In this document: in pieces, positions 30,950 through 33,476 of the stretch
Numbering within the stretch: position 1 is the stretch's first letter
Layout: every line of letters starts with the position of its first letter
Origin: a phage
DNA length: 64,000 bases
Sequence record: NC_111505.1
Strand: one strand, 5' to 3'
The notes under the pieces: generated by a model
What the model was told of the DNA's origin: nothing
The model's input: only the letters and a program-made list of their open reading frames with translations
The model's database searches: none
Program-made: the position numbers and the translations under genes

Positions 30950-31754
30950 TTAGATAAAACGCTTGAACATAGAAGGTGATGAGATTGATGGAATCACACA
31001 AGGCAGCGCTACCTCCTCTTTCTCCAGGAAATTAATCGCAGAAGCTACACAGTCGGCCCAGTCGTCTTTTCTGTTAAATGTTGATCTTTCCCCGTTGAAC
31101 TTTTCAAGTTCAGTCAAAAATGCTTCCAAAGTGTCAGGATGGAAACTGGATTTTACAATCCTCACCATTCCTTGTTGGGCAAGATTGGCAAAAGGTGAGA
31201 ACCTTGTCAGTTTAGATTTGTTGGAAGGCATCGGATCTTCTTCAACCCTGAACCCTTCGGCGAGCAAGGATCTGGACGAGGTTAAGAACTCACTCTTACC
31301 TGCCTGACCGGGGTCCACAGAAAATACGATTATGCAATCATCTCCATCAAACTGCGCCTGTTTCCTGATGATCACATCTCGTTCCCCAGCCTTTTTACAG
31401 AACTTACCTTCCAGACCTGTGGAATACCTACCGTCATCCACGTTCTCAGGACAATAATCCCCGGACAGGTAATAAAAACCGTCGCTATCTTTACTTACCT
31501 TAACACTGGCAGTAAAGTCAGGAAATTTATTACCGGAAGTTCTCTCGGTTCCTGCCTTATCCCATGCCCTGCAAGATACTGATCCAAGAGGTACTCTATC
31601 GGCATCACGAAGGAAAGATCTTTGGAAATAGTTTGCACCCTCAGGTTTGGCAAACCAGTTGCCATGAAGAAGCTGGGCTTTTTCAAGCTCTGGTAGACCT
31701 TCAAGGAAAGCAAGGTATTCTGGGTTGTCTCTCAAGCAGACAGGATTATCGAAT
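30950..31754 (-). CDS. terL: terminase large subunit, exon 2 (nuclease domain)
   Basis: RNaseH-like nuclease domain with GNWF and DDWADCVASAI motifs. Frame is open upstream to the proposed 3' splice site at 31755. Confidence 0.65.
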
Positions 31755-32733
31755 CCTTATATTCAAAGGTGGTCGCAACACCACCCTCCGCACCATTACG
31801 TGCTGCTGCATGTTACCATGCAGAGTAGACTATATCACCACCCATCTCAGGGTGCTTCGCTTTTCGAGCGCCATAAGCTTGCGCCCTACTCCCTCTCGGG
31901 ATAGTCGTTGAACTACATTACCAATCGTAATTGTTTGAAATATAGGTGTAAGTCTTACGGTCTTTTATTCCTTTAACAACACTAAAACTTACACCCCACT
32001 TTTTAGCTATTTTATTTACACACAAAACCCTATCACTGAGATCTTCGCAGATACCTATTATCTTGTGCTCACTTATCCTATTAGAGGTTGGCACTTTTCT
32101 AAAGTTAAACTCTTTAGAAATATCCGGGTATACTGAGCCATTCTTTATACCACTTACAAGCGGTTGATTGACACCAAACATTTCACAAATGTCTTTTACC
32201 CTTGCACCTTGCTCTAACAGTCTACATATTTCAAGGGCAGTAGCATCATCTAGGGACCTGTATTTATTGACATAGTCCTTTTTAAGTCCCATTTCATGAG
32301 CATGATGTGTGTTTTCCTCAGGTGTTGTCCACTCAAGGTTCCATGCGGCGTTATTTAACTTATTGCCATCAAGGTGATTTACTTGAGTTTTCACGCTAGG
32401 ATTATCATTATCAACAAAAGTCATAGCAATAACTCTGTGAACGAGCACTTGGAACTTTTTACCGTCCTCGCACAAAGTTACCATAGCATAGCCAGTCTTT
32501 TTCTGCACATTAGGATGGAGGAATTTATTAGAATACAGACTGTAAATTCTGCCATCGTATGTAGCACAATAATGATTGTAGCCTAAAAAGCCTAAATTTT
32601 TCATTTCAAACATCTCCCTACTACAGGTTCGGAAGGGTAATTATAGCTGCTGATTGTCCGTTTAGCAATCGGATTTTCCAGCAATTAACGAAGTTATTCG
32701 ACGTGCATTTCTGCACGAAGCCACTATCATTTA
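31755..32733 (-). mobile_element. group I intron in terL carrying an HNH homing endonuclease ORF
   Basis: Separates the ATPase and nuclease halves of terL. The 3' terminal ~82 nt (plus 31755..31836) are ~85% identical to the 3' end of the nrdD intron (61231..61313) and end in ...AAGG. 5' boundary uncertain (about +/-15 nt). Confidence 0.55.
31918..32604 (-). CDS. intron-encoded HNH homing endonuclease
   Basis: HNH_3-type motif VHRVIAMTFVDNDNP...NHLDGNKLNN plus C-terminal helix-turn-helix-like modules. Start placed at the second ATG (32604), which has RBS GGGAG 9 nt upstream. Confidence 0.6.
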   Translation of the reverse strand: MKNLGFLGYNHYCATYDGRIYSLYSNKFLHPNVQKKTGYAMVTLCEDGKKFQVLVHRVIAMTFVDNDNPSVKTQVNHLDGNKLNNAAWNLEWTTPEENTHHAHEMGLKKDYVNKYRSLDDATALEICRLLEQGARVKDICEMFGVNQPLVSGIKNGSVYPDISKEFNFRKVPTSNRISEHKIIGICEDLSDRVLCVNKIAKKWGVSFSVVKGIKDRKTYTYISNNYDW

Positions 32734-33476
32734 ATGGTTGCGCCTATAAACGAGAATGACAACGGTCTTGGCTTGATTTCCACACCTAGTCCATTGACCG
32801 TGGTGTATTTCTCTATTAACTCCTCTTTAGAGTCTCCCCAGATAAACTCACCGTCGCGTCGGATAAAATATCTTTTCTTACCACATTTCTCCGGATCTGG
32901 ATACCCTTCATCGTCCAACCACCACCTAACCAGTTTGGCAAGCATGTGTTCTGAGTCGGGGTTACAACTGATAACCATTCTTGATGGATACTTTGACTGA
33001 GATCGCAGACGAGACATCAAATAGTCTATCTGCTCCCATTCGAATTGCGTGCCTTCATCGAAGCAAACCATGGTGTACTCAAGGCCTTGATGGTTAAGCT
33101 TATCTTGGACATACTCCATGTGGCAGTATTTTACAACAGCCCCCTTTTTGCTCCTGTCCCACTTGCCAGTGCTCGGATCAAACCGTGGAAAAATAAATTT
33201 ATGATCCTTCTCTCTAAATTTTGGCTTGATGTTCTCAGGGAGATCGCTGTAGATAGCTACTGCTTTAGGCCATAGACCTCCTTCACCCTCCAGCTGCGGG
33301 GTTGTTCTTCGGAACATAACCACAGAGCTGTGTGGGTCATCAATAATTTTAAGCGGCATCAACTGCAGGAGGAACGACTTACCTGAACCAGCCGCACCAC
33401 CAATGACAAGAATGTCTGCATCGTTTTCTAGGATCATCTTCTGCTTTTCAGAACACGGTCCGTAAATCTTAGACAT
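32734..33476 (-). CDS. terL: terminase large subunit, exon 1 (ATPase domain)
   Basis: Walker A GGAAGSGKS and Walker B VCFDEG. The ORF terminates at 32727 inside the proposed intron; the exon end is approximate. Confidence 0.65.

Follow-up and report, generated by a model that had tools for sequence, protein, structure and literature searches.

How is a complete large terminase subunit (TerL) made from a phage gene that lies in two separate open reading frames, with an HNH endonuclease gene between them? The question is raised by a locus in a 64,000-nucleotide stretch of phage DNA (NC_111505.1; hereafter the window), whose source is an rV5-like Vequintavirus, an E. coli phage with a genome 96% identical to those of phages PDX and rV5. 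The upstream ORF (32727..33476; all features of the terL locus are on the minus strand) contains the Walker A and Walker B motifs, and the downstream ORF (30950..31735) encodes the C-terminal part of TerL. A preliminary description had proposed that terL is split by the window's second group I intron, carrying its own HNH endonuclease. In-frame restoration of the gene, a U·G wobble at the 5' splice site, a terminal G, a group I core and covariation bear this proposal out, and we consider it very probable that the essential terL gene is interrupted in Ile248 by a phase-2, 979-nt IA2-type intron, which would be removed by ribozyme splicing and spread by HNH-dependent homing.

Removal of an intron is expected to restore a continuous coding sequence. 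Alignment to the terL of phage SYGMH1, which has no insert, holds through exon 1 up to 32734, and comparison with uninterrupted terL genes gives an insert of exactly 979 nt (31755..32733), which starts with UAAAUGAUAGUGG and ends with UAUAAGG. Exon 1 (32734..33476, 743 nt) encodes amino acids 1-247 and two bases of Ile248; exon 2 (30950..31754, 805 nt with the stop codon) provides the third base of Ile248 and continues to amino acid 515. These are the exon limits put forward earlier, and alignment and RNA-structure rules now give the same numbers. Joined, the exons form 1548 nt encoding 515 amino acids, with a single stop codon at the end, and the resulting protein is identical to the uninterrupted TerL of SYGMH1 (PHROG 979, E = 1.7e-208). 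An intrinsic-terminator-like hairpin (30879..30900) follows the gene; a rho-independent terminator is annotated at the homologous place in rV5.

The position of the insert within the protein was assessed with Pfam profiles rather than on a solved structure, because a search of the ligated TerL against PDB sequences gave nothing meaningful (best E = 0.39, a collagen adhesin). Exon 1 contains Walker A (GAAGSGKS, amino acid 27) and Walker B (VCFDEG, amino acid 137). The ATPase domain, Terminase_6N, matches at amino acids 25-294 (72.6 bits, cutoff 22) and thus runs across the exon junction; the RNaseH-like nuclease domain, Terminase_6C, matches within exon 2 at amino acids 394-489 (27.9 bits, cutoff 22.6). 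The insertion interrupts the motif FIGATI|FDNP at codon 248 and is therefore inside the Terminase_6N match, close to where the ATPase domain ends. The two ORFs with the HNH gene between them are found as previously described, but the intron does not separate the ATPase domain from the nuclease domain. If the RNA were left unspliced, the exon 1 frame would stop two codons into the insert and yield a 249-aa fragment, and it is sound to expect, as proposed before, that virion production would depend on splicing because the unspliced mRNA stops after these 249 amino acids.

Group I introns nearly always have a U·G wobble at the 5' splice site and a terminal G, and these two rules were used to place the junction, since DNA comparison alone does not place it to the base. 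In P1, the sequence ACCAU|UA, which spans the 5' splice site, pairs with the guide UAGUGG and places a U·G wobble there; the last nucleotide of the intron is G (31755). Neither feature varies among the six distinct sequences, and every orthologue keeps G|A at the 3' junction, that of UAB_1 (...AAAAAG|AUUUGA) included. This places the intron after the second base of the Ile248 codon (AU|A, phase 2). The ligated junction is predicted to be ...ACC AUA UUC GAU..., reading GCAACCAU|AUUCGAUAA, with FIGATIFDNPVCLR as the peptide across it. Such a junction fits the ATA found at codon 248 in the intron-less alleles of APECc02, MiataMamis and IMG/VR contigs.

The same intron could also be read with its junction one base 3', such that exon 1 ends ...ACCAUU (32733) and the intron (32732..31754) ends in A. 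Ligation would then give ...AUU UUC..., as in SYGMH1-type intron-less alleles, and the protein would be the same. It is at this position that BLAST alignments with SYGMH1 and ECP26 break off, both alleles reading ACA ATT TTC, and ATT alleles in general fit it. However, this junction would turn the U·G wobble into a U-A pair and leave the intron without its terminal G, and both rules are kept by the window's nrdD intron and by the intron at terL site 1 of rV5. In addition, intron-less alleles are polymorphic at the wobble base (ATA, ATC and ATT), so that ATT carries no special weight. On these grounds the shifted junction was rejected as very unlikely, and the AU|A junction is used below.

A group I intron is expected to fold into a conserved catalytic core. 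In the 5' half of the core (32637..32733), defined by a cmscan alignment and by pair counts, we recognize the 3' strand of P1, which is the guide (32726..32721), P2 (32717..32702), the 5' strand of P3 (32693..32687), P4-P5-P4' (32683..32648) and the 5' strand of P6/P6a (32647..32637). The 3' half (31755..31921) contains the 3' strand of P6a/P6 (31921..31912), P7 (31908..31902), P7.1 (31901..31890), P7.2 (31886..31866), P3' (31861..31855), P8 (31854..31839), P7' (31832..31827), P9 (31823..31806), P9.1 (31803..31790) and P9.2 (31788..31765). P7.1 and P7.2 between P7 and P3', together with P9.1 and P9.2, are features of subgroup IA2, and on the basis of these hairpins we class the intron as IA2-type. 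By inspection, the canonical guide region has weak potential for P10 (about 3 bp). J2/3 (UCGAAU) is complementary over 6 bp to the very start of exon 2 (AUUCGA) and could act as a substitute for the weak canonical P10.

Across the terL intron and its orthologues, down to 67% identity, the 78 proposed pairs are paired in 97% of cells. Double-sided compensatory changes occur at 21 pairs, compared with 4.8 ± 1.9 in shuffles (0/500 reach 21) and at most six in slid controls. They include two pairs in P7.2, two in P9.1 and six in P9.2, whereas P4 and P7 are uninformative because they are invariant. An independent minimum free energy (MFE) folding finds P1, P2, P3, P4, P5, P6, P7.1, P7.2, P8, P9, P9.1 and P9.2, with a z-score of -4.97. 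The insert thus shows every hallmark of a group I intron that can be tested in sequence.

Scanning with cmscan, the check suggested previously, gave a divided answer. At the gathering threshold, the Rfam scan of the whole window reported tRNAs only and not the terL intron; at permissive thresholds, the intron matched RF00028 in two sub-threshold halves of 34.2 and 25.1 bits (gathering score 50). The threshold is missed because a 715-nt ORF cassette splits the core. ORF-less alleles at the same terL site score 95.6 bits (RudolfGeigy) and 92.7 bits (VB-EcoM-WM), so the gathering score is reached for this core through its ORF-less orthologue, although not by the window sequence as one match.

The window contains another group I intron, in nrdD (60552..61313, plus strand; RF00028, 32.9 bits), with an HNH ORF within it at about 60654..61163. 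Its junction was read from the sequence, and positions 1-263 and 264-562 of the Pfam NRDD profile abut exactly there. An identity of about 85% between the last 82 or so nucleotides of the terL insert and the nrdD intron, both ending in G, had been noticed before and was reproduced here (71/83 aligned columns, about 85.5%). Over 137 nt of their 3' halves the two introns are 78% identical (E = 3e-23), far beyond chance. In contrast, the 5' half of the nrdD intron has no recognizable likeness to the P2-containing P1-P6 region of the terL intron, and the two endonucleases are only 27% identical.

The gene in the P6a loop of the terL intron (31918..32613) encodes an I-HmuI-like HNH homing endonuclease with HNH_3 and helix-turn-helix regions. 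HNH_3 matches with 28.0 bits (Pfam cutoff 24.8), the protein matches PHROG 59 with E = 6e-51, and it aligns with I-HmuI (PDB 1U3E) with E = 3e-11, keeping the His and both Asn of H-N-N. Translation likely begins at the second AUG (32604), 9 nt after a Shine-Dalgarno sequence, GGGAG (32618..32614); the starts annotated in TH18 and UAB_1 match the resulting MKNLG. The stop codon, UAA, lies inside the 3' strand of P6a. A TTGCTA-17-TATAAT element occurs at 32668..32640, and a predicted hairpin would conceal the ribosome-binding site of the gene. Compared with rV5, dS is 0.19 and dN is 0.002 (dN/dS about 0.01), showing that the ORF is under strong purifying selection.

Could the insert instead be a free-standing HNH cassette that splits terL into two polypeptides, which assemble into a working terminase without RNA splicing? 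Such an arrangement would agree with the GenBank records of HdK5, TH18 and UAB_1, where the terL pieces are annotated as separate CDSs, and with the stop codon two codons into the insert. However, the 5' end of exon 2 is 19 nt upstream of the first start of the downstream ORF, which consequently has no start at the junction; this start, a TTG in frame six codons into exon 2, has no obvious ribosome-binding site. The split would also fall inside the Terminase_6N domain. The non-coding flanks of the endonuclease gene (about 264 nt) preserve a group I core that is complete and shows compensatory changes, and an ORF-less version of 266-268 nt at the same site (93-96 bits) is left unexplained. We therefore regard a free-standing cassette as highly improbable. 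The chance that the intron is decayed or splicing-defective and terL a pseudogene, for example in a defective or mis-assembled genome, is negligible: it has no specific support, every helix is preserved and matches its counterpart in the propagated isolates rV5, PDX and HdK5 exactly or almost exactly, the TerL obtained from the exons does not differ from a functional, uninterrupted protein, and the endonuclease ORF is intact and constrained. Two other classes of element were rejected, an intein because the exon 1 frame stops within the insert and the ORF inside it is delimited by a separate start and stop codon, and a group II intron because the ORF encodes an HNH protein rather than a reverse transcriptase and the permissive Rfam scan of the region found no group II family.

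The group I intron remains the preferred reading. The anatomy of the locus, the restoration of the exons, the structure with its covariation, the protein family, the selection on the endonuclease and the coexistence of three allele types are directly supported, and from these we infer splicing catalysis, the activity and target of the endonuclease, and homing. The pre-mRNA would fold into the P1-P9.2 ribozyme, with exon ACCAU paired to the guide UAGUGG and the U·G wobble placed at the 5' splice site, after U32734. Exogenous guanosine would attack this site, and the freed exon 1 would then attack after the terminal G (31755), giving a ligated mRNA for the full 515-aa TerL. In a mixed infection, the HNH endonuclease would presumably nick or cut an intron-less terL near the insertion site, and recombinational repair would copy the intron, with flanking exon bases, into that allele.

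Indirect evidence for homing comes from the patchy distribution of the three allele types and from the purifying selection on the endonuclease ORF. At terL site 248, related phage records include roughly 13 with intron and endonuclease, about 18 with an ORF-less intron and about 100 that are empty. TH18 and Justusliebigvirus UAB_1/C3 have orthologous introns with endonuclease at this codon (79% and 67% identity, respectively). The ORF-less loci of RudolfGeigy (Bas52) and VB-EcoM-WM have the same insertion point and ribozyme core, and where their flanking and core sequence is matched it shares 95-98% identity with the window. In place of the window's endonuclease gene and P6a stem they have a short, unrelated P6 hairpin: between the BLAST segments, 732 nt are unmatched in the window and 21 nt in the ORF-less allele, whose whole P6 module is CCAAGCCUGAAUAUUCAGGAAGG. 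The two intron forms thus differ by a swap of the entire P6 module and not by simple deletion. A scan of IMG/VR with the P7-P7.1 motif gave related introns, at least 120 in number, but the matches listed included none from the terL site; these were left out of the covariation count. It is possible, although we are inclined to doubt it, that the terL locus, with its three allele types in one phage genus, is a natural snapshot of a full homing cycle in which intron and endonuclease are separable mobile modules.

An exon base that pairs with the guide also differs between alleles, the exon reading ACC in intron-bearing and ACA in intron-less alleles of every close relative examined. The association is not universal, as two distant intron-less IMG/VR alleles have ACC. 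The difference could reflect co-adaptation of exon and ribozyme, or immunity of the target site to the endonuclease.

The practical value of these results lies in the annotation of Vequintavirus and Justusliebigvirus genomes. In many deposited genomes the intron is overlooked altogether or terL appears as two or three separate CDSs, named "terminase" or "hypothetical", and ORF-containing copies escape the default Rfam threshold. With the exact junction AU|A in Ile248, a correct joined terL CDS is possible. The locus is a further example of a homing intron that occupies a highly conserved motif within a gene essential to the phage, and the empty, ORF-less and endonuclease-bearing alleles, all in easily grown coliphages, offer a convenient, though not new, system for homing and loss.

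The intron itself is already known and in this sense ordinary, because it has been published for rV5, as "Introns in terminase" on the basis of BLASTX (Kropinski et al. 2013, Virol J 10:76; PMC3606486), and is annotated in RefSeq NC_011041, which codes rV5 terL as a three-part join. The second intron of rV5 terL (ORF64ABC, rv5_gp065) has the same gene, codon and 979-nt length as that of the window, with about 96% identity over the aligned terL-intron region, and its endonuclease (rv5_gp066) differs by one amino acid out of 228. In addition, rV5 has an ORF-less intron, about 320 nt long, in Walker B (DEG|T), a site that is empty in the window. As cited in PMC3606486, a group I intron in a terminase gene was described for Lactobacillus phage LL-H (Mikkonen & Alatossava 1995); its insertion site differs from the window's. 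In Pectobacterium phage CB7, of the same subfamily, terL is interrupted by a paralogous group I intron, which contains an HNH gene and has a 3' core similar to the window's; its splicing has been proven by RT-PCR (PMC7344957). The CB7 intron lies at FIGVD|EGTQF, in Walker B, and is therefore not orthologous to the window's; with its site at D|E of Walker B, CB7 was set aside as direct support and serves as precedent only. CB7 provides the only experimental evidence of splicing in the subfamily, and the open-access literature searched contained no transcript, protein or splicing experiment on the codon-248 intron.

The T4-type IA2 introns (td, nrdB and nrdD/sunY) have P7.1/P7.2, P9.1/P9.2 and an ORF looped from a peripheral helix in common with the terL intron, which probably resembles that of T4 sunY. 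Weaker matches are found in T4-like genomes. In contrast, the td and sunY endonucleases are of the GIY-YIG type, that of the terL intron is of the HNH/I-HmuI type, and the host gene differs. I-HmuI, the HNH nicking enzyme from the DNA-polymerase group I intron of Bacillus phage SPO1, is homologous to the window's endonuclease over amino acids 11-154. The H...N...N motif is kept (VNHLDGNKLNNAAWNLEW in the window against VDHKDGNKDNNLSTNLRW in I-HmuI) and is followed by a C-terminal DNA-binding module, but identity is low, the target gene is another one, and the window's protein has a longer C-terminal region with helix-turn-helix matches.

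Three minus-strand ORFs were called across 30950..33476: a 249-aa 5' ORF (32727..33476) with Walker A (GAAGSGKS, aa 27) and Walker B (VCFDEG, aa 137) motifs, a 231-aa middle ORF (31918..32613) and a 261-aa 3' ORF (30950..31735). The terL region is 95.5-96.2% identical to those of PDX, rV5 and other Vequintavirus genomes, and the window is thus rV5-like coliphage DNA. In BLAST comparisons, relatives fall into three classes at the terL site: uninterrupted (SYGMH1, and ECP26 at this site), carrying a 266-268 nt insert at the identical position (VB-EcoM-WM, RudolfGeigy), or carrying the identical 979-nt insert (rV5, PDX, HdK5 and others). 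Compared with SYGMH1 and ECP26, the window is longer by 979 bases, placed between 32733/32734 and 31753/31754. Left unspliced, the exon 1 reading frame meets a stop after 249 aa. Ligation of 33476..32734 to 31754..30950 gives a 1548-nt ORF. The encoded protein (515 aa) does not differ from the terminase large subunit of SYGMH1 and matches Pfam Terminase_6N (aa 25-294, 72.6 bits), Terminase_6C (aa 394-489) and PHROG 979 (E = 1.7e-208). The junction falls in codon 248 (FIGATI|FDNP), within the Pfam ATPase-domain match. The preliminary description, which placed an intron between the ATPase and nuclease domains, was right about separate terL ORFs flanking an HNH ORF but not about the domain boundary, as the insert lies inside Terminase_6N.

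From DNA alone, the junction is ambiguous by one base, as the SYGMH1 allele (ACA ATT|TTC) fits an insert AAAUG...AAGGA. In P1, the guide UAGUGG pairs with exon ACCAU, and a U·G wobble is formed by the first U of AUU. A 5' splice site at this wobble gives an intron of 32733..31755 with a terminal G; the RNA rules (U·G, terminal G) therefore settle the ambiguity and overrule the SYGMH1-fitted junction. The ligated mRNA reads ACC AUA UUC, leaving Ile-Phe unchanged. The wobble base of codon 248 is polymorphic among intron-less alleles, being ATA in APECc02, MiataMamis and three IMG/VR contigs, ATC in JES2013, and ATT in SYGMH1 and ECP26. Since ATA alleles exist, the AUA junction matches real uninterrupted genes. 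Both rules also hold for the window's nrdD intron and for the first of the rV5 terL introns. This sequence-based mapping reproduces the exons first proposed (32734..33476 and 30950..31754).

At the gathering threshold, an Rfam scan reported only tRNAs and not the terL intron. A permissive scan returned two minus-strand matches to the group I intron model RF00028, one at 32382..32743 (25.1 bits, good part P1-P6) and one at 31806..32014 (34.2 bits, good part J6/7-P7...P7'-P9), so that a cmscan check suggested at the outset succeeds only at permissive settings. The two matches are halves of one ribozyme with the ORF between them. At the same site, the ORF-less alleles of RudolfGeigy and VB-EcoM-WM reach 95.6 and 92.7 bits, where the cutoff is 50, and these loci share 95-98% identity with the window over matched flanking and core sequence. 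Helices P1, P2, P3, P4, P5, P6/P6a, P7, P7.1, P7.2, P8, P9, P9.1 and P9.2 were laid out and assessed in an alignment of six distinct orthologues, namely the window, rV5, the two ORF-less alleles, TH18 (79% identity) and Justusliebigvirus UAB_1 (67%). Standard pairs occupy 97% of pair cells, and both-sided changes are seen at 21 of 78 pairs, compared with 4.8 ± 1.9 in shuffles (0 of 500 as high) and at most 6 when partners are slid by 1-3 columns. Compensatory changes lie in P2, P3, P5, P6, P6a, P7.2, P8, P9, P9.1 and P9.2; P1, P4 and P7 are invariant and therefore uninformative. The minimum free energy (MFE) fold of the ORF-deleted core (-98.4 kcal/mol, z = -4.97) independently recovers the laid-out helices except the P7 pseudoknot. 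Exon restoration, the RF00028 halves, the above-cutoff ORF-less orthologues and covariation support the proposal that the 979-nt insert is a group I intron, assigned to subgroup IA2 (T4-like) from P7.1/P7.2 and P9.1/P9.2.

The window's second RF00028 candidate (61029..61263, plus strand, 32.9 bits) lies within the nrdD group I intron (60552..61313, plus strand; junction ...AUGGGU|...AAUG|UGUAGA, protein SMG|CRSFL), upstream of nrdG (62435..62926). Pfam NRDD profile positions 1-263 are matched by one nrdD exon product and 264-562 by the other, with neither gap nor overlap. The intron holds an HNH ORF (about 60654..61163), and the stop codon of that ORF overlaps the 5' strand of P7. Over 137 nt, the terL and nrdD introns share 78% identity in their 3' halves (E = 3e-23); in the last 82 nt, 71 of 83 aligned columns match and both introns end in G, in agreement with the roughly 85% identity reported initially. 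In contrast, the two endonucleases share only 27% identity, and the 5' halves have no recognisable likeness. Judged by its matches in 254 sequence-database records and at least 120 IMG/VR contigs, the common part is a ribozyme module widespread in phages.

Approximately 129 Vequintavirus-type records contain this terL region, counting RefSeq/GenBank duplicates and "UNVERIFIED" records. The full 979-nt insert is present in 13 and the intron at ≥90% identity in ~31, leaving ~18 ORF-less alleles; in the remainder the site is empty. The P6 module reads UAUAAUUAC-[ORF]-GUAAUGUAG in the endonuclease allele (32637..32647 and 31912..31921, minus strand) and CCAAGCCUGAAUAUUCAGGAAGG in the ORF-less allele (positions 1154-1174 of database record L002). 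Because the entire module differs, neither form is a simple deletion of the other; gain or loss of the endonuclease apparently involved its own P6a stem as well.

That the intron has its own HNH endonuclease, as originally claimed, is upheld by matches to Pfam HNH_3 (28.0 bits, cutoff 24.8), with helix-turn-helix matches downstream, and PHROG 59 (HNH endonuclease, E = 6e-51), and by homology to I-HmuI (PDB 1U3E, E = 3e-11), whose H-N-N residues are kept. The ORF sits within the P6a loop, with its stop codon inside the 3' strand of P6a. The first AUG directly adjoins the Shine-Dalgarno GGGAG. Translation more likely starts at the second AUG (32604, 9 nt downstream), which is the counterpart of the starts annotated for TH18 and UAB_1. 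Relative to rV5, dS is 0.19 and dN 0.002; in the comparisons with TH18 and UAB_1, synonymous sites have reached saturation, while amino-acid identity is still 82% and 62%. This pattern of substitution indicates a maintained gene, not a relic. Just upstream of the gene is TTGCTA-17 nt-TATAAT (10/12, 32668..32640, minus strand), the best sigma-70-like match of a region in which promoter-like sites are no more numerous than in shuffles. A predicted hairpin pairs the Shine-Dalgarno with CUUCC (-5.3 kcal/mol, 32635..32614, minus strand), and a transcript begun after TATAAT would be without its 5' arm. An endonuclease promoter and hidden ribosome-binding site are possible, an arrangement resembling the control of I-TevI in T4.

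The Thr246 codon (32736..32738, minus strand) is ACC in 9/9 intron-bearing alleles examined, its third base pairing with the guide in P1, and ACA in 8/8 closely related intron-less alleles; ACC also occurs in two distant intron-less IMG/VR alleles (L135, L136). The difference could reflect hitch-hiking, selection for P1 pairing or endonuclease resistance. J2/3 UCGAAU (32701..32696, minus strand) is fully complementary to the exon 2 start AUUCGA (31754..31749, minus strand; ~0.07 matches expected by chance), and the MFE fold pairs them. In UAB_1 a G·U keeps this pairing, which does not amount to true covariation; the complementarity might substitute for a weak canonical P10.

Other terL sites are occupied in relatives. 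The Walker B site DEG|T (...GAU GAA GGC|ACG CAA..., 33030..33075, minus strand, codons ~137-146) is empty in the window, holds an ORF-less group I intron of ~320 nt (84-85 bits) in rV5 and RudolfGeigy, and holds a ~884-nt intron with an endonuclease-VII-like ORF in HdK5 and ECP26. Beside it, window GAA GGC ACG differs from rV5 GAG GGT ACA by three synonymous changes. Exon identity to rV5 is 91% upstream versus 96% downstream, and this fall suggests co-conversion. TH18 has a further, more 5' site.

Elsewhere in the window, a free-standing HNH ORF (34629..34967, minus strand; Pfam HNH 23.8 bits, cutoff 21.4) adjoins a cluster of at least five tRNA genes (35017..35737, minus strand), one of which (35172..35268) has a long insertion. 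A weak Rfam match to 'Phe_leader' (30872..30990, minus strand) is no leader but the terL terminator hairpin (30900..30879) and U-run. Several deposited genomes (L004, L007, L008 and others) have no joined terL CDS, each exon being entered as a CDS of its own under 'terminase' or 'hypothetical', and in the PDX record the intron ORF goes under 'DNA endonuclease I'. More than 12 GenBank MG0656xx records (e.g. L009), titled 'UNVERIFIED: Campylobacter phage' with C. jejuni as listed host, share ~95% identity with genomes of E. coli phages of Vequintavirus or Justusliebigvirus; the host labels are probably wrong.

The terL intron with its I-HmuI-like homing endonuclease is a previously described feature. 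For rV5, "Introns in terminase" were reported as three segments, one with a homing endonuclease, and D. Shub was thanked for defining the intron location (Kropinski et al. 2013, PMC3606486). terL is annotated as a join of three parts in RefSeq NC_011041 (rV5), where HNH gp066 lies within it, and also in the RudolfGeigy BASEL record; a terL intron is noted in the LL12 announcement. No experiment on the window's intron was found in the literature searched. Added here are the base-exact junction, a helix map with covariation, the three-state allele distribution and the reason that the default Rfam threshold misses the intron, together with leads on P6 module exchange, ACC/ACA, a possible endonuclease promoter and hidden ribosome-binding site, and J2/3-exon 2 complementarity. 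In Pectobacterium phage CB7, of the same subfamily, RT-PCR and Sanger sequencing showed that an HNH-bearing terL intron splices (PMC7344957), although at a different site (D|E) from that of the window.
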